Assembly (NCBI GenBank): GCA_964016885.1
Contig: OZ024741.1
Coordinates: 371,256,001 to 371,320,000 of the forward strand
Direction: 5' to 3'
From: Eledone cirrhosa
Lineage: Eukaryota
DNA: 64,000 nt
The position numbers were made by a program, and so were the translations under genes. Under the pieces are notes generated by a model, which did no database searches, was not told the origin of the DNA, and saw nothing but the letters and a program-made list of their open reading frames with translations. This document shows positions 25,668 through 64,000 of this stretch, one piece after another. Within the stretch, counting starts at the first letter, position 1. Each line of letters starts with the position of its first letter.

Positions 25668-27080
25668 AGAGTTTAGCGTAAAAGTTGGCGTCCATCAGGG
25701 CTCTGTTCTCAGCCCCCTACTATTTATTATTGCCCTTCAGGCTATAACAGAGGAGTTCAAGACAGGCTGCCCATGGGAACTCCTATACGCAGACGACCTG
25801 ACACTCATAGCGGAATCAATGGCCGAGCTAGAGAAGAAATTCCAAACATGGAAGCACGGCCTAGAGTCAAAAGGACTTAAAATTAACCTGGCTAAGACCA
25901 AAGTTCTAGTTTGTAGGAAAGAAAACAAGGCGGCGGTCCCTTCTGGGAAATGGTCGTGCTCGGTATGTAGGAAAGGCGTAGGTAGAAACTCCATCTTATG
26001 TCCTAAATGCAAAGTATGGGTGCATAAAAGATGTAGTGGGATCACAGGTAAGCTAACTAAGAACATAGACTTTACATGTGGCCGGTGTTCTGGTGCAATA
26101 AGTAGCAGCAAGTGCCCACAAAATACTAGCTCTTTCAATTGCGCAGAGGGTTCTATAGAAATAGTGGACAGCTTCCGTTACCTGGGCGATAAAATCAGCA
26201 GTGGGGGAGGGTGCTCTGAAAGTACTGTAGCTAGAGTCAGAACTGGTTGGAAAAAGTTCAGAGAGCTTATACCACTATTAGCTGCTAAAGGGTTCTCCCT
26301 AAAAATGAAAGGCAGGTTGTACGATGCCTGCATACGAACAGCAATGTTGCATGGTAGTGAGACCTGGGCATTGTGTGCAGAGGATATACGCAGACTAGAG
26401 AGGAACGAAGCTTGCATGCTCCGCTGGATGTGTAACAGTAATATACGTGAACGGCAAAGCATAAACGAACTAAGGAAACAATTAGAGATAAGAGGGATCA
26501 GATGTTGTTTACTCGAGAGAAGGCTGCGTTGGTATGGACACGTGATGCGCATGAAAGTCGATAGCTGTATTACAAAGTGCAGGGCAATAAAGATAGACGG
26601 TAGCCACGGAATAGGCAGACCTAGAAAAACATGGGATGAGCTGATAAACTCCGACCTCACACACTTACACCTCTCCAAGACAATGTCACTGGACCGTGAC
26701 CTTTGGCGGTACTCAGTAACAGAGAAGACCCGCCTTGCCAGTAGGCATCTCTAACAAACTACACCCCGTCCCGCCACCACCCCCACCCCATCCACACCAC
26801 CCCGTTCCATGTAAAGTTATGTTGGTGCCGCGCCATCCAGGCCGAAACAAACGAGATCGTGTAGGTGTCACGACAAAAAAACACACAGTCCACGCTGTAA
26901 TGTGGCCGTGTAGGCAACACGGTAAAAACCTCCCAGACCCACACTGTAAATGTGGTTGGTGTTAGGAAGGGCATCCAACTGTAGAAAACCTGCCAGACAA
27001 TCACTCTTGCCTCAAGTGGGACTACCCCCGTCCAAACCCATGCAAGCGTGGAACACGGACGTTAAACGTTGATGATGATG

Positions 27081-27082
<2 letters not shown>
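25658..27082 (+). mobile_element. 5'-truncated young RTE LINE (family 1)
   Basis: Open RT C-terminal frame nearly identical to the 2613-4065 copy; (TA)n on both sides; ends ~110 bp before an MTFMT exon. Confidence 0.93.
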
Positions 27083-27111
<29 letters not shown>

Positions 27112-27195
27112 TGAATGCATTGTTTATTTTTTTTGTTTTATTGTTGATCTTATTCTGATTATAACTTCATCAATCTTCAAATTTCTTTGCTGTAG

Positions 27196-27287
27196 CTCAT
27201 AAACCCACCACAAAGATGACATATATCAACTGGGCAGAACATACCTGTGATATGATTGATAGACAGTACAGAGCTTTCCATGAAAGG
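27196..27287 (+). CDS. MTFMT: MTFMT exon
   Basis: tgctgtag|CT CAT...AGG|gtaaga; (A)HKPTTKMTYINWAEHTCDMIDRQYRAFHER matches the I-x-W...I-x-R-x-x-RA motif; 92 nt. Confidence 0.92.
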
Positions 27288-27379
27288 GTAAGACTATATA
27301 TATTTATATCTATATATAAGACTTCTTTCTCTACACTGTCTGGATAATAGCTTATATATGTGAATATGGCTTGCTAAAT

Positions 27380-30300
27380 TGTTATTGATATTTATGGTAT
27401 TGATGTTGGTGGTGTTGATGGTGATGATAGTTTTGGTGTTGATGTTGATGGTATTAGTGGTGTTGATGGTGATGATGTTGATAGTGTTGTTGGTGTTGGT
27501 GTTGGTAGTGTTGATGATAGTAGTGTTTATGGTGTTGATGTTGTTGGTGATGGTGATAGTTTTGGTGTTGATGGTGTTGGTGATGATCTTGATGTTGATG
27601 TTGGTGTTGTTGGTGTTAGTGTTGATATTGGTAGTGTTGGTAGTGTTGGTAGTGTTGGTGTTGATGGTGGTGTTGTTAGTGTTGATATTGGTAGTGTTGG
27701 TAGTGTTGGTGTTGATGGTGGTGTTGTTGGTGTTAGTGTTGATATTGGTAGTGTTGGTAGTGTTGGTGTTGATGGTGGTGTTGTTAGTGTTGATATTGGT
27801 AGTGTTGATAGTGTTGGTGTTGATGGTGGTGTTGTTGGTGTTAGTGTTGATATTGGTAGTGTTGGTAGTGTTGGTAGTGTTGGTGGTGTTGATGGTGTTA
27901 GTATTGATATTGGTAGTGTTGGTAGTGTTGGTAGTGTTAGTGGTGTTGATGGTGTTGTTGGTGTTAGTGTTGATATTGGTATTGTTGATAGTGTTGGTAG
28001 TGTTGGTGTTGATGGTGGTGTTGTTGGTGTTAGTGTTGATATTGGTATTGTTGATAGTGTTGGTAGTGTTAGTGGTGTTGATGGTGTTAGTATTGATATT
28101 GGTAGTATTGATAGTGTTGGTAGTGTTAGTGGTGTTGATGGTGGTGTTGTTGGTGTTAGTGTTGATATTGGTATTGTTGATAGTGTTGGTAGTGTTAGTG
28201 GTGTTGATGGTGGTGTTGTTGGTGTTAGTGTTGATATTGGTATTGTTGATAGTGTTGGTAGTGTTAGTGGTGTTGATGGTGGTGTTGTTGGTGTTAGTGT
28301 TGATATTGGTATTGTTGATAGTGTTGGTAGTGTTAGTGGTGTTGATGGTGGTGTTGTTGGTGTTAGTGTTGATATTGGTATTGTTGATAGTGTTGGTAGT
28401 GTTAGTGGTGTTGATGGTGGTGTTGTTGGTGTTAGTGTTGATATTGGTATTGTTGATAGTGTTGGTAGTGTTGGTGTTGATGGTGGTGTTGTTGGTGTTA
28501 GTGTTGATATTGGTATTGTTGATAGTGTTGGTAGTGTTGGTGTTGATGGTGGTGTTGTTGGTGTTAGTGTTGATATTGGTAGTGTTGGTGTTGATGGTGG
28601 TGTTGTTGGTGTTAGTGTTGATATTGGTAGTGTTGGTAGTGTTGGTGTTGATGGTGGTGTTGTTGGTGTTAGTGTTGATATTGGTAGTGTTGGTGTTGAT
28701 GGTGGTGTTGTTGGTGTTAGTGTTGATATTGGTAGTGTTGGTAGTGTTGGTAGTGTTGGTGTTGATGGTGGTGTTGTTGGTGTTAGTGTTGATATTGGTA
28801 GTGTTGGTAGTGTTGGTAGTGTTGGTGTTGATGGTGGTGTTGTTGGTGTTAGTGTTGATATTGGTAGTGTTGGTAGTGTTGGTAGTGTTGGTGGTGTTGA
28901 TGGTGTTAGTATTGATATTGGTAGTGTTGGTAGTGTTGGTAGTGTTAGTGGTGTTGATGGTGTTGTTGGTGTTAGTGTTGATATTGGTATTGTTGATAGT
29001 GTTGGTAGTGTTGGTGTTGATGGTGGTGTTGTTGGTGTTAGTGTTGATATTGGTATTGTTGATAGTGTTGGTAGTGTTAGTGGTGTTGATGGTGTTAGTA
29101 TTGATATTGGTAGTGTTGATAGTGTTGGTAGTGTTAGTGGTGTTGATGGTGGTGTTGTTGGTGTTAGTGTTGATATTGGTATTGTTGATAGTGTTGGTAG
29201 TGTTAGTGGTGTTGATGGTGGTGTTGTTGGTGTTAGTGTTGATATTGGTATTGTTGATAGTGTTGGTAGTGTTAGTGGTGTTGATGGTGGTGTTGTTGGT
29301 GTTAGTGTTGATATTGGTATTGTTGATAGTGTTGGTAGTGTTGGTGTTGATGGTGGTGTTGTTGGTGTTAGTGTTGATATTGGTATTGTTGATAGTGTTG
29401 GTAGTGTTGGTGTTGATGGTGGTGTTGTTGGTGTTAGTGTTGATATTGGTAGTGTTGGTGTTGATGGTGGTGTTGTTGGTGTTAGTGTTGATATTGGTAG
29501 TGTTGGTAGTGTTGGTGTTGATGGTGGTGTTGTTGGTGTTAGTGTTGATATTGGTAGTGTTGGTGTTGATGGTGGTGTTGTTGGTGTTAGTGTTGATATT
29601 GGTAGTGTTGGTAGTGTTGGTAGTGTTGGTGTTGATGGTGGTGTTGTTGGTGTTAGTGTTGATATTGGTAGTGTTGGTAGTGTTGGTAGTGTTGGTGTTG
29701 ATGGTGGTGTTGTTGGTGTTAGTGTTGATATTGGTAGTGTTGGTAGTGTTGGTAGTGTTGGTGGTGTTGATGGTGTTAGTATTGATATTGGTAGTGTTGG
29801 TAGTGTTGGTAGTGTTAGTGGTGTTGATGGTGTTGTTGGTGTTAGTGTTGATATTGGTATTGTTGATAGTGTTGGTAGTGTTGGTGTTGATGGTGGTGTT
29901 GTTGGTGTTAGTGTTGATATTGGTATTGTTGATAGTGTTGGTAGTGTTAGTGGTGTTGATGGTGTTAGTATTGATATTGGTAGTGTTGATAGTGTTGGTA
30001 GTGTTAGTGGTGTTGATGGTGGTGTTGTTGGTGTTAGTGTTGATATTGGTATTGTTGATAGTGTTGGTAGTGTTAGTGGTGTTGATGGTGGTGTTGTTGG
30101 TGTTAGTGTTGATATTGGTATTGTTGATAGTGTTGGTAGTGTTAGTGGTGTTGATGGTGGTGTTGTTGGTGTTAGTGTTGATATTGGTATTGTTGATAGT
30201 GTTGGTAGTGTTAGTGGTGTTGATGGTGGTGTTGTTGGTGTTAGTGTTGATATTGGTATTGTTGATAGTGTTGGTAGTGTTGGTGTTGATGGTGGTGTTG

Positions 30301-30845
30301 TTGGTGTTAGTGTTGATATTGGTATTGTTGATAGTGTTGGTAGTGTTGGTGTTGATGGTGGTGTTGTTGGTGTTAGTGTTGATATTGGTATTGTTGATAG
30401 TGTTGGTAGTGTTGGTGTTGATGGTGGTGTTGTTGGTGTTAGTGTTGATATTGGTAGTGTTGGTGTTGATGGTGGTGTTGTTGGTGTTAGTGTTGATATT
30501 GGTAGTGTTGGTAGTGTTGGTAGTGTTGGTGTTGATGGTGGTGTTGTTGGTGTTAGTGTTGATATTGGTAGTGTTGGTGTTGATGGTGGTGTTGTTGGTG
30601 TTAGTGTTGATATTGGTAGTGTTGGTAGTGTTGGTAGTGTTGGTGTTGATGGTGGTGTTGTTGGTGTTAGTGTTTATATTGGTAGTGTTGGTAGTGTTGG
30701 TAGTGTTGGTGTTGATGGTGGTGTTGTTGGTGTTAGTGTTGATATTGGTAGTGTTGGTAGTTTTGGTGGTGTTGTTGGTGTTGGTGATAGTTTTGGTGTT
30801 GATGTTAGTGGTGTTGTTGATAGTGTTGGTGTTGATGGTAGTGTT
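27380..30845. repeat. 3.5-kb triplet-mosaic satellite (GTG/TTG/GTA/ATG/ATA/TTA)
   Basis: Almost C-free plus strand; subunits up to 69 bp and higher-order periods of 1008 and 870 bp. Confidence 0.95.
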
Positions 30846-30864
30846 GCTGCTGCTACAGGAATAA

Positions 30865-31700
30865 ATGTATGGCCCTAAGACATCCCTCCTCCTCTTCCCC
30901 CTATAGACGTCAAATCCCCTGAGAGTACATGGGATGCCATCCAGTGTGACATGGCCTTAGACAGGCTAGCACGCCAGCTTAACCAGCACCGCCTTGCATG
31001 TTTTCACTCGGCCTCGCAATCCCACAGTGGTGCCTGGCTCAATGTCTTAGCCCCCTTTTCGACTGGCACGCTGGACAATGATAGCCTGCGAATCGGTGTT
31101 TCTCTGAGGCTCAGCCTCCGGATTTGTGAGTCACACAAATGTTGTTGCGAATCCACCATAGACTTTTTCAGCCTCCACCTGTTGTCCTGTCGCTGCAGTG
31201 CTAGCCGCCTTCCATGCCATGCTGCTCTCAACGAGGTCATAAGGCATGGCTTGGGTGCTGCAAGTTTCCCCTCCCAGCTTGAGCGGGTGGGGCTGGATCG
31301 AGGGCAGCAAAAGGCCACACAGCATGACCATTCCCCATCCTGCAGTGATAAACCCCTCATCCGGGATGCCACATGCAGCAACACTTTCTCCAGTGGCAAC
31401 GTGGTGCAGTCAGTGATTATCCCAGGCTCTGCTTCACTTCGGGCTGAGGAGGGTTAACTCCAAATATCGGTCACTCTCTGACAGGTTTGTGGTTGAGCCC
31501 ATAGCAGTGGAGACTTCTGGTGTCCTTGGCCCTAGGACCACCTCCCTATTCACTACCATCGGTACAGAGTTGGCTACCAGCAGGTGTGAGCCTCACAAAC
31601 TGGAATGGCTCTTCCAGCATGTCTCCCACCCCGTCCTCCAGGGAAACGCCTTCTCTATTTTGTCCGCCGGCGTTGTGGGGCAGCTAGCAGGTGAGCCTCC
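30865..31700 (+). mobile_element. Degenerate CRE-like non-LTR retrotransposon 3' fragment (zinc finger + restriction-like endonuclease)
   Basis: HSGAWL...LRIGVSLRL...C-C...H.LSC...H.ALN.VI, then DATC, PIAVETSG..G, QGNA; frameshifted. Confidence 0.8.
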
Positions 31701-33298
31701 ATTTGCTTATAATAATGCGAGATGGGGAGAGCAGGGGAAATGGAGACAGTGACAGTGGGAGTTTGGTTCCATTGTGTTCGAATTACCACACCACATATAT
31801 AACTTGTTTTCAAATTAAAGGAGTGGTAGAGAAAACTTATCCAAACAATTCTGCTTCAAGTGTTCTAGTATGTATATAATGTTATGTTGTTTAACCCTTT
31901 AACATTTACACAATATATACTATATATTACACAATATATACTATTATATTTTTATGGTAAAGGCTTTATCTTACATAATTCTCTCACATAATATCAAATC
32001 TACGAGATTTTGATATCATTTATTTTGAGAACAATACTTTAGCGTCAGTATGAGCGGTCAGTTATGGCTTTGAACAGAAAGAAGTGAGAGAATTCTGGCC
32101 AGATACGGCCAGTTTAAATTCTAAAGGGATAAATATTAATTCGGTAAGTCTATCAGCTTTCCCTTAACATAATTGGTCAAATACTAAGTAGCCAGCAGCA
32201 GCTCCCACACCTTTCTTGGATAGTTTTCTGTTTTTTACATTTAATTAGATTTAATAAGGTGCGTGGCTTAGTGGTTAGAAAGTTGGATTCGCAATCATGA
32301 GGTTGCGAGTTCAATTCTTGGACCGAGTGATGCATTATGTCCTTGAGCAAGACACTTTATTTCACGTTGCTCTTTCTGCCAGGAGTTGCGACTGGTAGAT
32401 AGTATCAACAATGGAAAGACCTATGGAAACATTATTTCTTTGGTCCGATTTGATGAGGTCCACTTCACTCGGCAAGCGAATGAGGTCTGGGATCTTGTCG
32501 ATCGATTAGAGCAAGAGAGGTGGGGATTGGTTGGTCAATGTTTTAAGCCATTCCAGCTCATCTACCACTACCACTGTTACTAATCCCACCATCATCACCA
32601 CCACCAACAACAACGCCATCACCACCACAACCTCTACCACCACCTCTATCACTAACACTACCACCACCACTGCTGCTACCACCATCACCACTTAATACTG
32701 GTGTGTTTGTTGTTATTTTGTTCTAGGTTAGCCCTGATCAAGTAACATGTTCTAGCTCTAATTATCTTGTCTTTTTTTCTCAGACACAATGTAGTATTTA
32801 ACCCTTTTGGTTCCAAATTATCTGAAACTGGCCTTGGTTCCATCATATAAACCTGTTGTAATTTTATGTCAGAATATTTATTAAGTTATGTTCCAAACCT
32901 CCACTTAATAATTAGAAAGTTACTTATATTACTAAATCCCTCCAAATTATCAATGCTGCAAGTGTGTTGGCTTGCTTCAAAATTTATTAGAATGAGGATT
33001 TATGCCCCTTGTTATGGTGTGGTATTGAGTGTACACGTTTTCTCTTGCCCCCTTTATTTCATCATCATCATTCCTTATTATACCCCTTTACCGTTTTTTA
33101 GTAATGTATATATCAGCATAGTTTTATATGTTACAGAAATCATATATTGAACACAAATCCCGGTTGTTTTAGGGATCAAATATACATTTGTTTGATGCAT
33201 TTATAATTTTGTAATGTATGACCAGAATTTTCGTAAATTTGGATTATAAATGTAGGACTGCCCTGTGACTTATGACTCACCTTGAATATACACTAAGG

Positions 33299-38659: not shown

Positions 38660-38724
38660 TATTTTGTCTGATGAAGGCATACCATAATGTAACTTGGTAT
38701 CCTTGAAATATATATAATGAAATA
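38660..38724 (+). ncRNA. Minimal hammerhead ribozyme motif (sense strand of MTFMT intron)
   Basis: UAUUUUGU-CUGAUGA-AGG(c)AUACCA...UGGUAUCCU-u-GAAA-UAUAUA-UA-AUGAAAUA; stem I kept with two G-U pairs. Confidence 0.78.
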
Positions 38725-53184: not shown

Positions 53185-54278
53185 ATGGTCTAAAATCCAT
53201 ATTAACATCATATGAGACCCGGATAGTAACACTAAAGCAACATCTTCAACAGAGGAAAAAGGTTGGCAACCATCTTGCCCAGGTTTATGAGCATGACGAA
53301 AAAAATATCATTAGAATAGCGACTGATCTGGAGGAGAGATATGGAATAAAGCCTGATATAAATCTCTCACCCAGAAAAATGGGAAGATCCTATTCAATGT
53401 TCAAACACGATGAAAAAATTGACCAATTTACAGAAAAAGTTGTGCATGGATACTTGAGACGTAAAACACAGACCATAGAGGGGATAAACCACTTAAAAAG
53501 CCTGGCATGGAGTTCCGACAAGTTTATGACATCACACCTTGAGGGATATCTCTATGCAATACAGGAACAAGAACTCCCTAGCAAATATCTGCTGCACAAA
53601 AGAGGAGGGCCATCAGCTGACAATAAATGTATGCTATGTAAAACAAAGATCGAAGATGTAAGCCACATTGTTGCCAGCTGCGAAAGAATGTCATCTCGCT
53701 ACTACCTCCCCATGAGACACGATGGGATAGCTAGAACCATCTGGAACGCACTTCGGAAAACAAAATTAACAACAAACGAAGAAGAATATATTGAGACAGA
53801 TGGCACTAAGGAATACTGGTGGAACCTGAAAATAAAAACTGCCACCAAATTAAAGCACAACCCGCCTGATATTGTTGTTTGGGACCACACATTGAAAACG
53901 TGTTCTGTTGTGGAGATCAGCTGCCCACTTGATGTAAACGTTGTCAGAAAAATACAGGAGAAGGAGGACATCTATGGATCATTGATGAGGAGTTTACAAA
54001 TCCAGTATCCAAGATACACCTTTAGCTTCATACCCATCATTATTGGTGCTACGGGTTATATACCAACCCGCTTGGACCAAAGTATGACTGAACTTGGATT
54101 TGCGGACAAAAAGCGCAGCTCCCTAATTCATAGTCTACAAATGGCTGCGATAGCTGGCACCTTCAAAATTTGCAAAACATTCTTGCGATTCAAGGGATGA
54201 CAATTTCTTTTCTTTTACAACCTTGCCACCAGGAAGGTGGCCGGTCAAAAATATAAGCGAAATTAAGAGAAAGAGAGA
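53185..54278 (+). mobile_element. 5'-truncated R4/Dong-like LINE (CCHC knuckle + restriction-like endonuclease)
   Basis: AIQEQ, CMLC...H...C, RHD, PDIVVWD, VEISCP.D...K motifs in an open frame to 54200; 3' end runs into (CATA)n. Confidence 0.85.
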
Positions 54279-54788
54279 ACATACATACATACATGCATAC
54301 ATACATACATATATACATACATGCATACATATATACATACATACATACATACATGCATACCTACATACATACATACATGCATACATGCATACATACATAC
54401 ATACATACATACGTACGTGTATACATATACATATGTAGATATTTAAAATATTGATATATCAACTAAATTTCAGTTTTACAGAGAGAGAGAGTGAGTGCGA
54501 AATATAGATAGAGAGAGGGTGGGGGGTATATTTGACACAATAAGCATAAATCAAATTCTGGTTTATATTAGTTTAAGGCATAGTTTGAAATGATTCATGA
54601 GTTGGAAATCTCGGCGAGACATTTTTTAAAAAACAGTTTTTAAATTTTGCAGATTTCGGGCGAAAGAAGAAAACTGTGTTAGGATAAAACAATCTATTTA
54701 TTTATTTATTTGTTCGTTTGTTTGTTTGTTTATTTTGTACTCACTCTTTCTCTGTCTCCCTCTCTCTCTCTCACCTGCGTCTGTTTAT

Positions 54789-54829
<41 letters not shown>

Positions 54830-55099
54830 CACACACACACACATATATATATATATATTCACTACAGAACTTACTTAGGTAGATTCCTATCCTTTGGCCG
54901 TACATCACAGTTTTTATTTTATTTTATTCTATATTTTTCCAGGGGAGGGGGCGTTTGAGATGAGGGAATATTAGTGGAATACTTCTTACATACTTTAGAT
55001 TTATATTTGAAATTTCGTTGTTAGTAGCTGAGAACAAAGAGACGAGATGATATTTAATATATGTACATATTAAGTATTAGAATGGCTTCAGCTTCTCTG

Positions 55100-55310
55100 A
55101 GGTGGTTGACCTCATGCAACCTTCACTCAGACATTCCCAACTCATTCGTTTCTCCCTTTCATGATTCACGTTATGTCGAGACTGACAAGTTCAGGATTAA
55201 CTACTACAACCAGTCCTTCTGCCCTAGAATGCCACCCCTCTGGAATTTTCTCCCTGTAAGTGTCAACCTGCAGCTATTTAAACTAAATATCAACAGCATC
55301 AATCTCATCA
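55100..55310 (+). mobile_element. Degenerate CR1/Jockey-group LINE 3' end
   Basis: QSFCPR...LWNFLP...NLQLFK..IN resembles the conserved C-terminus of these ORF2 proteins. Confidence 0.5.
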
Positions 55311-55734
55311 GTCTTGGAGGGCTTGCCAAGGCCTCGGGCAACAGGCCCTTCCTCTTGACAGAGCAAAAGAAAACAAATACTTTCCATGTTAGCCACAGTT
55401 GTAGGTTGGTGAGGTCGAAAATGCTACAAATGAATTTTGTCAATTGATTTGCACCTTTCATGACATTTCCTCCAATCAAAGATTCCACTTCGTTATTCAG
55501 GCTACCTGAGTTAGCTGGGATATTTTCCATCACCTGTAGCTCGGCGGTCCTGTTTGCTGGCACTGAATAGGAACAATTGGAAATGCCCAAACATATGTTT
55601 TTCCTGCAGTAGTCGACTTGCAACAATTCATACAGTGCATCAACTCCCATTAGTCCCATTAGTCCCATTAGTCTCGTGGGGTTGGGGATGCAAAGGTCAT
55701 AGGCACAGCCTTTACCCCCAAAATAAAAATAATA

Positions 55735-57570
55735 ATGGTTTCGGATTTAGGCAGAAGGCTAACCATTTTGGGGGAGAGGAAAGTCGATCATTTCGACCCT
55801 GGTACTGGTACTTTCTTTTATCGACTCCATAAAGATGAACGGCAAAGCTAACCTCGACGGGATTTGAACCCAGAATGTAAAGGGTCGTAACTTTAAACCG
55901 TGAAGCAGGGTGTCTGATGCTCTATCATTCTAATAATTGTTTCTACTTTTGGCACAAGGCCAGCAATTATCCAGTGCATTACTGGTACTTTATTTTATCG
56001 ACCCGTAAGGATGAAAGGCAAAGTTAACCTCGCCGGGATTTGAACTCAGATCATAAAGGGACGTAACTCTATGCTTCAAAGCATGGTGTCCGACTCTCTA
56101 CCGATACCGCCAAATAGTTTCTTATATAGGCACAAGGCAAGCAATTTTGGGGGATAGGGAAGTCGATCAAACCGACCCCAGTTCGTGACTGGTATTTTAT
56201 TTTATCGATCCCGTAAGGATGAAAGGCAAAGTTAACCTCGGCGGGATTTGAACTCAGAACGTAAGGGATCGTAACTCTATGCCGTCAAGCAGGGTGCCCG
56301 ACGCTCTATCAATCTAATAATAATAATTTCTGATTTGGGCACAAGGCCAGCAATATTTGGGGAGGGGAAAGTTGATCAAATCGACCCCAGTCAGTTACTG
56401 GTGCTTTATTTTATTGACCCCGTAAGGATGAAAGAAATACCACAATAAATTTTATTTGATACACTAATGATACTGCCAAGCCACCGCCCTTAAAAAAACC
56501 AATAATCATTGTTTCTACTTTTCGCACAAGGGCAGCAATTACCCCAATGTATTACTGGTACTTTATTTTATCGACCCCGTAAGGATGAAAGGCAAAGCTA
56601 ACCTCAGCGGGATCTGAATGTAAAGGATCGTAACTCTATGCTACAACGCATGGTGTCCGACGCTTTACCAATCTAATGATAATAATTGTTTCTACTTTTG
56701 GCACAAGGCCAGAAATTACTCAGTGTATTACTGGTACTTTATTTTATCGACCCTGTAAGGATGAAAGGCAAAGTTAAAACAACTACCCTTGCTCCTGCTT
56801 AAATTATAAAAATATACAGTAGGGTAATATTGGATTTCTTAAAATACTTGCACATTTTCCAAATTTAAATGGGGCGTCCGTTTTAAGGTTTATTTCCAGT
56901 CACACACAGGCCGAATTGATAGTATTTACACACAGGCCATATTTATTAGTATTCGGGAGGTGGATTGGCAGTATCGGTAGAGGGTCGGACGCCATGCTTT
57001 GCATCATAGAGTTACCGCCCTTTACGGTCTGAGTCCAAATCCTACCGAGGTTAACTTGGCTTTTCATCCTTACGGGGTCGATAAAACAAAGTACCAGTAA
57101 TATACTGGGGTATTTGCTGGCCTGTGCCAAAAGTAGAAACAATGATTATTCGTTTCTTTAAGGGCGGTGGCTTGGCAGTATCATTAGTGTATCAGATAAA
57201 ATTTATTGTGGTATTTCTTCAAGACTCTTTATGTTCTGGTTTCAAATTACGCTCAGTTCAACTTTGCCATTCATCCTTCTTGGGTTGATAAAGTATAGTA
57301 CCACACTCTAGGACTGGGGTTGATTTAATCGACTTTTCCTTCCCCAAACAAATAGCTGGCCTCAGAGCAGTGAAAGTACAGAATCATTAGGACGCCGGAG
57401 AAAATACCCTCGTGGTATTTTTCTGGTTCCTTGAATTCTGAGTTCAATTCCCACCGAAGTCAACTTAACCTTTCATCCTTCCAGAGTTGATAAAATAAAG
57501 TACCAGTCAAATACTGAGCTTGATGTAATCAACTTTCCTCTTCTCAAAATTTCTTGGCCTTGTAAATTAG
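55735..57570. repeat. Dense cluster of SINE family A copies (minus-strand run then plus-strand run)
   Basis: About six head-to-tail minus copies 55735-56776 and about three plus copies 56957-57570. Confidence 0.85.
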
Positions 57571-57617
57571 AAACCCTTATCATTCATACCCTGAGGCTGG
57601 TGAATTAGTAGAGTCGT

Positions 57618-57677
57618 TAACCCTAGCCCCTACCCTCACCCTCACCCTAACCTTAACCTTGACCCTAACCCTAACCC
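57618..57677. repeat. Degenerate (CCCTAA)n telomere-like tract
   Basis: taaccctagcccctaccctcaccctcaccctaaccttaaccttgaccctaaccctaaccc; second short run ~57791-57805. Confidence 0.7.
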
Positions 57678-58027
57678 GAATATAAAAAATTAAGCTTTCA
57701 GAATCATCAATCGAAAATAATAATAATAAATGGGAAGATGTAGAACTTAGAGTTAGAAATTATGTAATCCGTAGTGACTAAAACTAAGACTAACCCTAAC
57801 CCTAAGTCTAAGAGATATTAACTCATTGATTGTTAAATCATTACGTTCTATAATTTAAATTAATCTTCTATTTTTCGTTACGGTATTTTCCCGTTTTGTT
57901 TTATAGCAATATATGTATAATATACTCTATGTACTCAGTATTTATCACAGTTTTCAATCACATTGTATTTGTGTATTTCGGATATCCTGTTGATGAAAGA
58001 GTTACTGTTAAATGAACACCTAAAAAA

Positions 58028-58430
58028 TGGCTACTCCTCAAGAAAAGGCACAGTGTGTGTCATGGTTTATTGAAAACAAAATCGGATATGCGGACTCAGC
58101 GAAACTACAGAACTAAGTATGGAAGAGATCTACCGTCACGTCCGTCAATTCGGGCATGGCACAAGAAATTTATCATTGGTCCATTATTCTTCAAATTTTT
58201 ACCTTGACTTTTTGACTGAATATGTGAGACCACAACTAGATGACCTTCAACCAACCATCATTTTTCAACAAGATAGTGCACTACCACATTTGGGACTGCA
58301 TGTTCATGGGTTCCTAAATCAAACATTTCCAGACCGGTGGATTGGAAGGGATGGCTCAATTCCCTGGCCACCTCGTTCACCAGATATCACTCCCCATGGA
58401 CTTCTTTCTATGGGGCTATGTGAAATATAG
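58028..58430 (+). pseudogene. Internally deleted Tc1/mariner-superfamily transposase
   Basis: MATPQEKAQCVSWFIE...RNYRTKYGR..PSRPSIRAWHKKF (HTH) joined to FQQD...WIGR...WPPRSPDITP.DFFLWGYVK; frameshifts. Confidence 0.85.
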
Positions 58431-59089
58431 ATGGATGTCACCATACGAATTAACTAGCTTTGATTGTAGACTCAAGAATATGAGATACAAGATACAGTGT
58501 ACTTGTATCTAAAACAAACAAACGATGTGATGCACGGCTATTCTAATCAGTCTTATGCGAAGGGGCGTCGAATAGACCGGAAAATACAGTATATTGTTAT
58601 TAATAATTTAGCGTTAAAAAGTGTGAAAAAATATATTACGCCACGAAAAAAGCCCTAAAATAATCGCGGAAGATATTTACAATTCTGCAAATATGCGGTG
58701 GTTTCCAAATATTAGTTAGATTCTAAGGGAAATTCCGCGAATAAATGGGATTGCGAATGCCGGGGGTACACTGTATATACTTTTTTCACACACACACACA
58801 CACGATTATTCTATTTCAATTAACCAGTCAGATTCACTCGGTTGTGCACATAGACGCACACATACATTTAAACACCCACTAAGCCAGACATCTACACACA
58901 CAACCACTCTCTAACCATAAAAAGCCTCACTTATACGAACAGAATTTACAATTCGATAAACAATATATCCCTTATTTGGAGAAACCACACTGCATGATGA
59001 TACAGTAAGTTAACCGCCAAGGCCTTCGGCAATCAGTCTGGAACTAGCTGTTGAAACGGCAAGAGCTCAGTTATCGGGGTTCCGATTTT

Positions 59090-59145
<56 letters not shown>

Positions 59146-59775
59146 AACGAATAGGACCCCGACGGCTGAGCTCAAGCCGTTTCGACGGCTAATTCTGGAC
59201 TCTCGGTCCAGAATTAGCCGTCGAAGCGGCTTTAGCTCAGCCGTCGGGGTCCTATTCGTTCCTATTACCCACTCTACTACCCTAAGTATTGAGTACTTTG
59301 GTGCGTCATGGTCCACCTGGTTCCTTACCACATTTCCTCCGTTATATATATATATATATATGGGAAAATGTTCAAGACCCCGACGGCAGAGCTCAAGCTG
59401 TTTCGACGGCTATTTCTGTCCAGAAATAGCCGTCGAAACGGCTTGAGCTCTTCCGTCGGGATCTTGAACATTTTCCTATTACCCACTCTACTACCCAAAG
59501 TATTGAGTACTCTGTACGTTATGGTCCACCTGGTTCCTTACCACACTTCCTTCGTTATATATATATATATAGATATATATATATTCCCAGGTGTAAAACT
59601 AATAATAATAACTTTTGTACTGCCTCTTCGTTTTTCTGTTTTTTGTTCTCTGTTTACTTTTTAAAATATATATATATTGTTATACTTTGGGAGGGTCATG
59701 CTGCCAATAAAAACACACGCACAAAAACAAGATGGTGTAGGACAGAACAAAGGAGAGACATGAAATAAAAACCTA

Positions 59776-59816
59776 GTCACTGAGGAGGTCACAATGTGTG
59801 ACGAAAGAGCTTGGAC
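59776..59816 (+). ncRNA. Minimal hammerhead ribozyme motif
   Basis: GUCA-CUGAGGA-G-GUCACA-aug-UGUGAC-GAAA-GAGC-UU-GGAC; one stem-I mismatch next to the core. Confidence 0.65.
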
Positions 59817-60092
59817 AATATATAAACAACGTTCCGGTTATCAAACCAACCAACCAACCGGAATTTTATAATATATTGAAGTGAAAACGAACAGGTGCGT
59901 GTGTTTTTATTGGAAATATGACCCTCCCAAAGTATAGCAATATCTGTTTCAACACACGTTTTCAGATAAGAAATCTTGCAAAACAAATTCAAAAACGAAA
60001 AAAAAATATATATATATATATATATGTGTATGTATGTATGTATGTATGTATGTATGTATGTATGTATGTATGTATGTATGTATGTATGTATG

Positions 60093-60630
60093 TCGGGTCG
60101 CTTTTGAGTGCTACTGGTAACATGTAACCCAGTACAACCTGTCGCATGGTCGGGGCGTCGGCGACTAAACCGGCAACCCCACCAAGTTTACTTGGTGAGG
60201 AGGTGGATTTAAGATACCCTGCAGGACAAAAAACAAAACCTGACAAAAGGCAGAAGAACTAGTAAGAGTCAACCGCCATCCAAAAGTGTGTAAATATTAT
60301 ATACACATGTACCGCGTGGTTAAACCACTGGGAGTAAAAACGACCCCTAGCCTTTGTCAGAGCATTCTTCTAGGAGAAGGCAACTCAGGAAACTGGGATA
60401 ACTCCAATATAAAACCTGCGGCTCAGTAGTTATCGATGATGTTGATCTTTTCTTCTTTTCGGGTTATAGCTACTGTCGCTCAGAGAGTGGGATTGGCTCA
60501 GTGCACAGTCTTTCCTCACTTTAAAAAATATCTTCACGCACAGGCATTGCACGATAGAATTAATTAATAATTATTAATAATGGTATATCGTGCACTGGCC
60601 ATACTCGATAATGAGGGGACAGCCATCATG
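60093..60630 (+). mobile_element. Non-coding retro-like element in a (TATG)n tract
   Basis: GC-rich head, aggagaaggcaact...aaac motif resembling RTE 5' UTRs, catcatgtatg tail; second copy at 52743-53058. Confidence 0.6.
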
Positions 60631-61019
60631 TATGTATATATATATATATACTGGTTGTCTGCTCGATACAAAGCTTGACCACTCCAATGTACATGATGCT
60701 CAGTTCTGGCATGGGGCTTATGGGGCTTTTCAGGCATATTTTTAAAAAGCCATCTACATAAATTCTATATTAGTTTTGGTGTAGTTTAGACACATGTGTA
60801 TCTTGAACCTTGAAATGTCTCTTTAGACCTTCTTATGATTTGCAGATCTTGTGGCATATGTGGCACTGATATATATATATGTGAACTGTATATATATATA
60901 CATCTGTATATATGAATATATGTAGGTTGGTATGTATGTATATAGATACACGCGCACACACACACACGCGTGCACGTGTGCGTGCGTATATATATATATA
61001 TATACCCTGCAGGACAAAA

Positions 61020-61087
<68 letters not shown>

Positions 61088-61381
61088 ATGATATTAATAA
61101 ATGGAAACTATATTTATAAACGGAAAAAATGAAACGAAATTTCATTTTCCACTCTTAGTACGGCTGTTACTTAAATATAAGTATGTACACGTACATAATA
61201 TATGTATACAGACGTACAGTAGTATGTATATATATATACATACATGCACACATATATATATGTACGTATGGATTCACCGAACATTTATTATAATGCTCGG
61301 TGTGTTTGTAAACAAACATCCCGTATTAAGCCGTAGTGTCCAGCAACCATTGTTGCTCGTTTGTTCAACACTGACAAAGGA

Positions 61382-61424
61382 ACGCTGTACTAGTTTCAAG
61401 CTTATTAGCTATCGTCAGCAACGT
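61382..61424 (-). ncRNA. Hammerhead ribozyme motif (CUGACGA type)
   Basis: Exact reverse complement of 62004-62046. Confidence 0.85.
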
Positions 61425-61587
61425 ATACCTTCCTGCCAGATTGTTGAACGTATATACTTACCTTACGCCTCAAACTCATTTGCATATTCATCAAAATAAT
61501 TTGAAATATTTGTTTTTTCCTCTCTTCCTCTTTGTCCCTTTTTCTCTCTTTCCTTTCACTATCCAGGTGAAACTTGAACAAACTTTG

Positions 61588-61648
61588 TATTTTATCTGAT
61601 GAGTGCGTACCAAAGTTTTGGTACCCTTGAAATATATATAAAAGAATA
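61588..61648 (+). ncRNA. Hammerhead ribozyme motif (CUGAUGA type)
   Basis: UAUUUUAU-CUGAUGA-..GUACCAA..UUGGUAC..-GAAA-UAUAUA-UA-AAAGAAUA; one stem-I mismatch. Confidence 0.7.
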
Positions 61649-61872
61649 AATATAGTTTTATAAATATATAAGTATGTACACGTACATACATATATGTATA
61701 CAGACGTACAGTAATATGTATATATATATACATACATGCACACATATATACATGTACGTATGGATTCACCGAACATTTATTATAATGCTCGGTGTGTTTG
61801 TAAACAAACATCCCGTATTAAGCCGTAGTGTCCAGCAACCATCGTTGCTCGTTTGTTCAACACTGACAAAGG

Positions 61873-61915
61873 ACGCTGTACTAGTTTCAAGCTTATTAGC
61901 TATCGTCAGCAACGT
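61873..61915 (-). ncRNA. Hammerhead ribozyme motif (CUGACGA type)
   Basis: Exact reverse complement of 62004-62046. Confidence 0.85.
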
Positions 61916-62003
61916 ATACCTTCCTGCCAGATTGTTGAACGTATATCAGCCGTTAATATGCATAAGGTAAGTATATACGTTCAACAATCTGGCAGGAAGG
62001 TAT

Positions 62004-62046
62004 ACGTTGCTGACGATAGCTAATAAGCTTGAAACTAGTACAGCGT
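62004..62046 (+). ncRNA. Hammerhead ribozyme motif (CUGACGA type)
   Basis: ACGUUG-CUGACGA-uAGCU-aaua-AGCUu-GAAA-CUAG-UA-CAGCGU; complete core, palindromic stem III, predicted cleavage after 62040. Confidence 0.87.
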
Positions 62047-62424
62047 TCCTTTGTCAGTGTTGAACAAACGAGCAACGATGGTTGCTGGGCACTACGGCTT
62101 AATACGGGATGTTTGTTTACAAACACACCGAGCATTATAATAAATGTTCGGTGAATCCATACGTACATATATATATGTGTGCATGTATGTATATATATAT
62201 ACATACTACTGTACGTCTGTATACATATATGTATGTACGTGCACATACTTATATTTAAGTAACAGCCGTACTAAGATTGGGAAATGAAATTTCGTTTCAT
62301 TTTTTTCCGTTTATCGTTTTCGGTGCACCCGGCCGATTAACCCACCCGATATGCAAATTGGACTACTCAGCCGTTAATATGCATAAGGTAAGTATATACG
62401 TTCAACAATCTGGCAGGAAGGTAT

Positions 62425-62467
62425 ACGTTGCTGACGATAGCTAATAAGCTTGAAACTAGTACAGCGT
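62425..62467 (+). ncRNA. Hammerhead ribozyme motif (CUGACGA type)
   Basis: Identical to 62004-62046, 421 bp downstream; predicted cleavage after 62461. Confidence 0.87.
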
Positions 62468-62694
62468 TCCTTTGTCAGTGTTGAACAAACGAGCAACGAT
62501 GGTTGCTGGACACTACGGCTTAATACGGGATGTTTGTTTACAAACACACCGAGCATTATAATAAATGTTCGGTGAATCCATACGTACAATTATATATGTG
62601 TGCATGTATGTATATATATATATACATACTACTGTACGTCTGTATACATATATGTATGTACGTGTACATACTTATATATTTATAAAACTATATT

Positions 62695-62755
62695 TATTCT
62701 ATTATATATATTTCAAGGGTACCAAAACTTTGGTACGCACTCATCAGATAAAATA
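62695..62755 (-). ncRNA. Hammerhead ribozyme motif (CUGAUGA type)
   Basis: Reverse copy of 61588-61648 with a fully paired 8-bp stem I (UAUUUUAU/AUAGAAUA). Confidence 0.75.
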
Positions 62756-62899
62756 CAAAGTTTGTTCAAGTTTCACCTGGATAGTGAAAGGAAAGATAGA
62801 AAAAGGGATAAAGAGGAAGAGAGGAAAAAACAAATATTTCAAATTATTTTGATGAATATGCAAATGAGTTTGAGGCGTAGGGTGAAAAAATCGTTATTT

Positions 62900-63520
62900 T
62901 TAGATGCTAGGTAGATTAAAATAATTATTAGGATATATATATGTATATATAGGAAGAAGAAAGAAAGAAAAGCTTGTAATTATATTACTAGTGTACGTGA
63001 ATTTAAAAAAATTGAAACGTTAAAAATTAAATGTTTGTTGAAGTGGTGGAATATCAATCCAGAATTAAAAAAATATTTAGCTAAATCATGACTTATAATA
63101 TTATATATATAATCATTACAATTAGATTATATGAAGAATTATGGTTGTAAGTACATTTTATCTTATTATATTACAACAGGTTGTAAGTATATAAATATCT
63201 ATATAGATTAATAAGTGTATAAATATAACTATTATTGGTGATTATATAGATATAAAACACACGTATTAATTTGTTTACATTTCTAATATGAGTTACGAAG
63301 GATGTTGATTTTACATTTTAAATATATACTTAAGAAAAAGACATAGTTCAAATTGTAAGAGAAGAACAATTTGTAGATTCAAATAGTTTCATAAAAAATT
63401 GAAAATATTTACAGAACATTATTAAGTTAGAGAAATTACATAGAATTTAACATACAAGTTATTATGTCTACGTCTGCTCAATTGTAAAGGAAAAGATAAC
63501 TCCAAAATTATTTGTTAAAC
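62900..63520 (-). pseudogene. Heavily decayed Penelope-type reverse transcriptase remnant
   Basis: Minus-strand peptide scraps in the expected order: VDI..NLY, KQIN, SPII, FKFTYTSN...SFSF; many stops and frameshifts. Confidence 0.45.
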
Positions 63521-64000
63521 TATTAATATTAGATTTGATGAATAATTTTCTTAGAAAATGCGGAAAGTATGTAGAGAAAATTATATATTATTTTGTGTGA
63601 GATTATAAGGTATTTTATATTACATGTTTTCAAGGATGAGAATTTCAATTATATATGTATTTGGATATTATCTATATCGAAAGATGTGTGAAAAGTTTGA
63701 AAATTAAAGAGAGGAAAAATATATTATTAGATAACTCAAGAGTGCATTTAGAAAAACTATCGTAAAGAGGATATCTTTCACAATATCAATTAAAAAGTAT
63801 CAATCTAAAAAAATATCAATCTAAAAAAAAATAGATTAAGAAGAGTATCATTAGGAAAAGAATATCATTGGTAAAAATATCAAATTTAAGAAGAAAAAAA
63901 TCATAAAAAAAAAACAAAAAAAACCTCATTAGACAACAGAAGCATTTTAAAGACGTATATGTAGTCAAGTGTAATGAATATTATAGATTAAAAATACTTC

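Follow-up and report, generated by a model that had tools for sequence, protein, structure and literature searches.

Near one end of the 64,000-nt stretch of Eledone cirrhosa DNA analyzed here (the window) stands a cassette of near-identical direct and inverted blocks carrying six hammerhead motifs distributed over both strands. An earlier note on this DNA had read it as a retrozyme-like source of circular RNA, in which either strand could yield a defined noncoding monomer. The locus raises the question of whether it is such a two-strand ribozyme device or the product of an insertion and, in the latter case, what was inserted, into what, and by which enzymes. Our analysis indicates that the cassette is very probably a young insertion of a 421-nt retrozyme in the AT-rich 3' terminus of an old Penelope-like element (PLE). 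A PLE RT/endonuclease likely acted in trans to make it, and 205 nt of target DNA were taken up as an inverted copy, probably during integration.

Architecture of the cassette

We compared positions 61000-63200 with themselves by BLAST and ran a repeat finder. The segment 61117-61469 is the reverse complement of 61960-62314, 61460-61946 is the reverse complement of 62394-62883, and 61946-62254 recurs as a direct repeat at 62367-62677 with a spacing of 421 nt, each at 98% identity. The whole of 61117-62883 resolves into four copies of a block A, which is the retrozyme unit U (reference copy, 61950-62370), and two copies of a block B, at identities of ∼98% (Table 1). The second B copy, 62678-62883, is the reverse complement of the first, and arm A2 together with block B forms an inverted duplicate of 62394-62883. 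The inversion junction lies at 61946/61947, and block B joins arm A1 via ∼9 nt of imperfect microhomology (61460-61469).

The six hammerheads and the two-strand block structure described in the earlier note are present by self-BLAST, repeat finding, and reading of the sequence, and the tandem plus-strand hammerheads do lie 421 nt apart, with cuts after 62040 and 62461. For the minus-strand and second-type hammerheads the note had the right places, but the coordinates that it gave are motif edges and not cut sites; the minus-strand HHR1 cut nucleotides are 61388 and 61879, 491 nt apart.

Table 1. Features of the cassette and its surroundings (positions in the window)
Feature	Position	Strand	Basis or remark
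PLE-terminus sequence	61085-61120	-	Adjoins the start of block B directly in other copies of the old PLE family
Target-site duplication, left copy, 12 bp	61109-61120	+	Few-base microhomology overlap with the insert end
Retrozyme arm A1, unit positions 11-365, long end with ∼60-nt tail	61117-61469	-	Self-BLAST, alignment
Type I hammerhead HHR1, cut nucleotide 61388	61382-61424	-	Sequence, alignment
Block B, inverted copy of 205 nt of right-hand target DNA	61460-61665	+	Shared private deletion
Copied PLE hammerhead HHR2, cut after 61640	61588-61648	+	A.A mismatch in helix I
Retrozyme arm A2, unit positions 24-305	61666-61946	-	Self-BLAST, alignment
Type I hammerhead HHR1, cut nucleotide 61879	61873-61915	-	Sequence, alignment
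Complete retrozyme unit U, 421-nt period	61947-62370	+	Repeat finder, genome search
Type I hammerhead HHR1, cut after 62040	62004-62046	+	Sequence, folding
Predicted 421-nt cut-to-cut monomer, candidate circular RNA	62041-62461	+	Folds
Second, partial unit, positions 1-305, short end without tail	62371-62677	+	Alignment
Type I hammerhead HHR1, cut after 62461	62425-62467	+	Sequence, folding
Target-site duplication, right copy	62675-62686	+	12-bp match to 61109-61120
Native HHR2 of the old PLE 3' repeat, cut nucleotide 62703	62695-62755	-	Same motif beside PLE ORFs in L170, L171, and L173
Old Hydra-type PLE, noncoding 3' part, insertion target	62678-64000	-	Colinear with other copies, tblastn

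The hammerhead motifs

HHR1 has a CUGACGA core, a 4-bp helix II with U.U at its base, a CUAG helix III, and a GUA triplet, and with a 6-bp helix I alongside the 4-bp helix II its build is canonical. HHR2 has a long imperfect helix II and a UAUAUA helix III. Our helix scan demanded a pair at the base of helix II and did not list the type-1 copies because they have U.U there; these were recovered by folding. When the plus-strand tandem transcript was folded, both HHR1 copies took up the expected three-way junction, in which helix I is extended. The minus-strand HHR2 (62695-62755) has helix I paired at 8 of 8 positions; the plus-strand HHR2 (61588-61648) is mismatched (A.A) at the second helix I pair, and this copied motif is probably impaired.

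No hammerhead family was among the 87 Rfam matches at an E value of ≤1 in positions 54000-64000 of the window, a search that was uninformative, all of its matches lying under the gathering score and most being microRNA hairpin models placed on palindromes. The 31-nt type-1 core, by comparison with its reversed control (0 matches), has 10,046 exact matches in the genome (5,264 plus 4,782). In 90 motifs drawn from 60 stretches of contig C1, two of them belonging to a related family, pair 3 of helix I is U.G in 48, A-U in 24, G.U in 9, C-G in 3, and U-A in 2, with U.U in 3; five standard pair types in 86 of the 90 motifs mean that helix I covaries. The search pattern fixed the core and the length of helix II, and their conservation in these motifs is thus no evidence. 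The core count against the control and the covariation of helix I exclude chance, and the HHR1 motifs are real.

Because helix III of HHR1 consists of one pair plus a palindromic loop, an arrangement described as requiring a dimer in the available text of PMC4209133, the earlier note's remark that the CUAG stem fits dimeric cleavage is a reasonable reading. The same one-pair helix III with a palindromic tetraloop occurs in axolotl Amex1, and axolotl Amex2 likewise has U.U as the basal pair of helix II, as far as these are described in the available text of PMC7229834 and of the preprint 10.64898/2026.07.22.740005. This U.U speaks against HHR1 activity; the preprint, in the same text, reports cleavage in vitro for one of nine tested frog retrozyme dimers. 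The fold score of the monomer (z = -6.07) was discarded as evidence, being inflated by a self-complementary TA/TG-rich stretch.

Two further PLE-type hammerheads of the HHR2 build lie elsewhere in the window, at 38668 (plus strand) and 1572 (minus strand), with a well-paired helix I and a palindromic helix III. These are probably the ends of other Hydra-type copies.

A genome-wide family of noncoding tandem units

A search of the 3.0-Gb genome with the 421-nt unit returned 645 candidates, the best 40 of which were scored and are 90 to 98% identical to U, on many contigs. In stretches taken around the best matches, the unit forms head-to-tail arrays of 57 units on contig C4 and 29 on contig C11, with no ORF between units, and three 10-kb stretches hold at least 21, 23, and 24 units, the arrays overrunning the stretches. 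The check for tandem arrays of block A that the earlier note had suggested has thus found arrays of 21 to 57 units; together with the covarying type I hammerhead and the lack of an ORF, they bear out its view that the 421-nt unit is of the retrozyme type. Its impression that the repeats are young also holds.

In the window, two consecutive tandem units each have a complete type I hammerhead (62004-62046 and 62425-62467). The unit is short, with a GC content below 50%, and has neither an LTR nor a protein ORF, its only frames being short and repeat derived; the family is both dispersed and tandem at a high copy number (10,046 cores on many contigs), and its hammerhead is supported by covariation at helix I pair 3. 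Judged from its sequence, U fits the structural definition of non-LTR retrozymes in the available text of PMC7229834 and 10.64898/2026.07.22.740005 and is a new sequence family of this known class. Like the animal non-LTR retrozymes covered there, it consists of tandem, noncoding, low-GC units of a few hundred bases with one type I hammerhead per unit, occurs in thousands of copies, and has PLEs alongside, whereas its sequence family is a different one. We found no description of such a hammerhead family in octopus in the literature.

U could instead be the terminal repeat (pLTR) of an autonomous PLE, which would make the cassette an ordinary 5'-truncated PLE stump. The ends and inversions of U are PLE-like, truncated PLE stumps look similar, and our sample covered 60 stretches in one contig region, of ∼10,000 cores. 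We nevertheless consider this explanation very unlikely given that arrays of 20 to 57 head-to-tail units have no ORF between them and that, in 37 5' flanks, U was never joined to a PLE body and showed no common extension towards an ORF. PLE protein matches near U also vary in position and orientation, and HHR1, with its 6-bp helix I and 4-bp helix II, contrasts with the long-helix-II motifs beside Hydra ORFs.

One place where U abuts a PLE was considered as a possible PLE body of U and rejected. It lies in a ∼25-kb retrozyme array (G000:C4:375754000-375792000; stretches L187, L026, L027, and L186) into which a young PLE inserted at an internal TA run, the young PLE plus a few U units then being repeated in tandem. 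A second retrozyme family is present in stretches L134 (205-825) and L163 (637-947), with 310-nt tandem units and a related hammerhead that has U.U at the base of helix II and a CGCG helix III.

Insertion ends of the family carry a PLE signature

We took the first 60 distinct core-match places on contig C1, chosen without regard to similarity, and counted elements of at least 150 nt. The 65 elements found comprise 32 inverted, 32 single-strand, and 1 complex. Their U 3' ends fall near position 305 (short class, 298-313) or 365 (long class, 355-367). Every inverted element with two classifiable ends (22 of 22) combines one short and one long end, which has a probability of ∼1e-7 if ends are chosen independently; in the remaining 10 of 32, one end lies outside both classes. 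The single-strand elements have 10 short, 14 long, and 8 other ends. Around the top matches, with the window's own locus left out, 5 of 6 further inverted elements are also short plus long, and in the 29-unit array on contig C11 the inverted head ends at 363 and the far end at 305. The window insertion itself ends at 365 on the left and 305 on the right; its locus (L041) had been classed as 305/305 because it was cut at 61178. By inspection, and not by count, most U 3' ends run into (TA)n.

PLE insertions are described as having an inverted 5'-truncated copy and a one-sided tail (PMC8557442 and PMC3846280), and in the anole Poseidon PLE, whose protein cleaves and extends both strands in vitro, the tail has been traced to a pair of internal sites at which the RT starts (PMC11167929), in the available text of these papers. 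Both the U family and the insertion in the window show inverted, 5'-truncated copies with the tail on one end only, in an AT-rich or (TA)n target; the short target duplication in the window is 12 bp. Set beside endonuclease-positive (EN+) PLE insertions, as far as these are described in the available text of PMC3846280 and PMC8557442, U shares the head-to-head inversion, the two alternative 3' ends, the tail on one arm only, the AT-rich or (TA)n targets, and the target duplication of ∼10 bp.

Mobilization in trans had been suggested in the earlier note, and the short-plus-long pairing with its one-sided tail makes mobilization by a PLE the best reading. Because 22 of 22 paired ends show the one-sided tail signature of PLEs, we consider that U is likely mobilized in trans by PLE enzymes. 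The enzyme that moves animal retrozymes has so far been argued from co-occurrence and pLTR homology, which is how the available text of PMC7229834 and 10.64898/2026.07.22.740005 makes the case for PLE dependence; here, a countable PLE signature is found at the insertion ends. We did not find an inverted-arm, one-sided-tail signature documented for retrozyme insertions in the available main text of the literature, supplements aside. On balance, we are inclined to see in these ends direct sequence-level evidence of PLE-integrated animal retrozymes, with a strict short-plus-long rule (22/22), as if a PLE dimer held the RNA asymmetrically, and with a cDNA that, in the window, folded back into the flank.

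The ends also bear on whether the cassette could be a fold-back artefact of assembly. Both repeat families were present in four DNA sequencing runs, and no read or contig spanning the locus was found in them, which would suit an artefact. This is barely conceivable, since each arm shows private differences and the outer ends are the two standard ends of the family with a 12-bp target duplication; the same inversion, furthermore, is present in 32 of the 65 sampled elements.

By eye, a pair of TACT...GAGTG-like motifs lies 7 to 20 nt past the short end in the tail of the retrozyme and in those of the two Hydra families (window 62262-62280; L067, ∼1440-1585; and L064), and it is possibly an RT recognition element.

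The insertion target is an old Hydra-type PLE

Positions 62678-63100 match an older repeat family (2,255 candidates, the best 40 scored, ∼79 to 90% identity), and block B and the sequence from 62884 onward are colinear with copies of this family at 85 to 90% identity over up to 1.9 kb. In other copies, a (TA)n run and ∼25 nt precede B; in the window these sit at 61085-61120. Since the sequence that usually precedes B stands to the left of the cassette and a 12-bp target duplication is found at 61109-61120 and 62675-62686, the cassette interrupts the terminus of an old PLE. Joints of 61118/61120 to 62684/62690 in the DNA runs were set aside, being uninterrupted old-PLE ends from elsewhere and not from the cassette site.

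The old PLE lies on the minus strand, with a linker and a GIY-YIG-like remnant at L021 2094-2603, 94 to 603 bases past the window end, and among its relatives, ORFs bearing DKT and CxCX5C motifs reach 699 codons. The Hydra clade of C-terminal EN+ PLEs is defined in PMC8557442 (section 11). We find its features for the target element (DKT, a CxCX5C linker, a C-terminal GIY-YIG domain, a 3' hammerhead, and a (TA)n target), read in translations where they are protein motifs, the linker and EN in this copy and the others in relatives, and we assign the target, by motifs only, as a Hydra-type PLE. Both the target family and a young intact family described below share with the clade the DKT motif, the CxCX5C linker, the C-terminal GIY-YIG-like domain, the 3' hammerhead, and the (TA)n targets; they differ from it in that the RWK motif reads RW plus another residue and in that the units are longer than the "<3 kb" stated for the clade (PMC8557442).

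The earlier note had placed a decayed RT next to the cassette. We find no RT similarity in 62884-64000 by tblastn with two Hydra-type proteins, and no RT part of the target copy was found by tblastn in the window or the next 18 kb, the sole match in the window being 15 residues of low complexity that we do not count as real. Pfam returned nothing in the six frames of 62884-64000, which says little because two genuine PLE ORFs were also blank and four others gave only subthreshold matches. By its sequence, the neighboring decayed element is the insertion target, a noncoding 3' part of a PLE, and a helper role is not implied. Broken LINE-type endonuclease/RT frames lie ∼3 to 5 kb to the right of the window (L021 5253-7381, minus strand), seemingly unrelated to the cassette.

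An inverted copy of the target and the 491-nt unit

Both B copies of the window are without ∼40 nt that are present in 25 of 26 other aligned rows, one of which diverges further on; the 26th row (L065) has a different, shorter gap, and the window deletion occurs in 0 of 26. A substitution at 62689 is also common to the two copies. The deletion junction is spanned only by the two window copies (best 40 scored of 574 candidates), the B-to-U junction only by the window (best 40 of 391), and the whole 491-nt stretch is matched in full only at the window (best 40 of 2,672); with the best 40 candidates scored, this uniqueness is a strong indication and not proof. Because the private deletion is common to both B copies, the left B was copied from the local target, and we conclude that the inverted block B is of local origin, taken from the cassette's own target.

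The six-ribozyme, two-strand device proposed in the earlier note does not survive this result: the second-type hammerheads belong to the old PLE target, and one of them is an inverted local copy with a damaged helix I. Nor does its 491-nt unit with a ribozyme in each polarity hold as a defined unit, being found only at the window among the best 40 scored. A replicating two-polarity unit should recur in the genome and have undamaged ribozymes on both strands, which is not what we observe, and we take the 491-nt unit to be a by-product of the insertion. That it is a distinct functional, viroid-like circular RNA with ribozymes in both polarities appears extremely improbable. Two intact minus-strand HHR1 motifs 491 nt apart do enclose the antisense HHR2, and a read-through transcript could release such an RNA, but the unit is single copy among the best 40 candidates scored per search, its antisense part was copied from the local target, its HHR2 has a helix I mismatch with no tandem second HHR2 on that strand, and it has diverged from the donor to the extent expected of neutral decay. 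Some viroid-like circular RNAs are known to carry ribozymes in both polarities. The 491-nt stretch resembles them formally in having a hammerhead motif on each strand, whereas it is a single genomic chimera with one damaged motif, and nothing about it points to a family or to RNA-RNA replication.

No clear comparable flank copy was found in 69 other stretches. Nine duplications were flagged in 70 stretches, one of them the window; of the other eight, L030 and L128 were read in detail and rejected as target-copy events. L030 is an inverted element of an unrelated kind. L128 (126-3233) is an inverted chimera of PLE and U sequence, in which a PLE endonuclease end is joined to an antisense retrozyme and duplicated on both arms of the inversion.

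A model for the insertion

The four A copies differ by 3 to 4 substitutions in ∼281 nt, in a star-like manner with no shared pattern, and the B copies differ by 3 in 202. Because the divergences of A and B are alike, and the units in the window differ by 0.6% from each other compared to a median of 3.7% to other loci, the six blocks look like the outcome of one event on a homogeneous template. Such a pattern would fit a template in the form of a monomer circle, copied by the RT in more than one turn, or of a young uniform array. A single homogeneous template does not account for all insertions, since among 28 multiunit loci the units within a locus resemble each other more closely than the between-locus median in 22 but not in the other 6.

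We propose that tandem copies would be transcribed and cut by their hammerheads, probably as dimers given the single pair and palindromic CUAG loop of helix III, into 421-nt monomers that can be circularized. A PLE protein would nick both strands of the target 12 nt apart, and each 3'-OH would prime cDNA synthesis at its own internal start, at unit position ∼305 on one side and ∼365 on the other. In the window, the right 3'-OH would have primed at 305 and copied ∼730 nt (∼1.7 units), and the left 3'-OH would have primed at 365 and copied to position 11. The right-hand cDNA would then have folded back near position 24 and copied itself along with 205 nt of attached flank, and the two cDNAs would have been joined at 61460-61469, where they share ∼9 nt of imperfect microhomology. 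The available text of PMC3846280 proposes self-priming as a source of PLE inversions, and that of PMC11702581 describes junctions of the templated or fold-back kind at LINE-1 breaks. The star-like differences leave as alternatives that copying may have run in the opposite direction or that a later rearrangement was involved.

In the latter case, a normal retrozyme insertion would have been followed by inverted duplication of 62394-62883 when DNA folded back during repair or replication. Palindromes that are long and AT-rich tend to be unstable. Templated and fold-back junctions at LINE-1 breaks also lend themselves to this alternative (PMC11702581, available text). We consider it unlikely in view of the B1/B2 divergence (3 of 202), which equals that of the four A copies (3-4 of ∼281) as a single event would predict, and of the position of the duplication exactly at the inversion junction between the arms, where twin-primed products join. 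The preferred reading remains copying during integration, and the cassette is itself an ordinary, untidy insertion whose value lies in the family to which it belongs.

A candidate helper in the same genome

A young Hydra-like family is present in the genome, its 100 best matches being 98 to 100% identical and its commonest open frame 821 codons long; the family, of which one example is found at G000:C3:211749796-211754049 (L174), occurs in tandem and inverted arrangements with an 88-nt tail. We regard this family as a candidate active element and a candidate helper. In the three of its insertions with both ends in view, short and long ends are paired 88 nt apart, and the tail of the old target family is about as long (∼88 nt). 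At ∼57-60 nt, the tail of U falls short of those of the two Hydra families. Between U and the terminal repeat of the intact young family we found no homology beyond embedded U pieces and one 92-nt match at 71%. The candidate helper is thus present and not tied to U, since an intact family exists while neither terminal homology to that family nor, in 37 5' flanks, a PLE body is seen at U.

If the proposed mobilization is correct, trans-mobilization of a hammerhead RNA circle would become testable in vitro, an intact Hydra-like ORF being in the same genome. The two mapped start sites and the candidate intact helper would provide a defined substrate pair for tests of mobilization and of the origin of the tail.

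Other features of the window

Two related, near-perfect 120-nt hairpins (59141-59265 and 59360-59479), with arms 97% and 93% complementary, have a ∼85-nt tail in common behind them and (TA)n at their borders, and they may be stumps of another PLE-type family. Copies of a ∼200-nt dispersed repeat, similar in kind to a SINE family, cluster in direct and inverted orientation at 56000-57570, and the broken reading frames at 58016-58470 resemble a Tc1/mariner transposase remnant. Degenerate (TAACCC)-like repeats occur at 57623-57805, far from a contig end. Positions 26001-32000, with an extreme strand skew (GC skew of 1.0 in 28001-30000), are probably a simple satellite.
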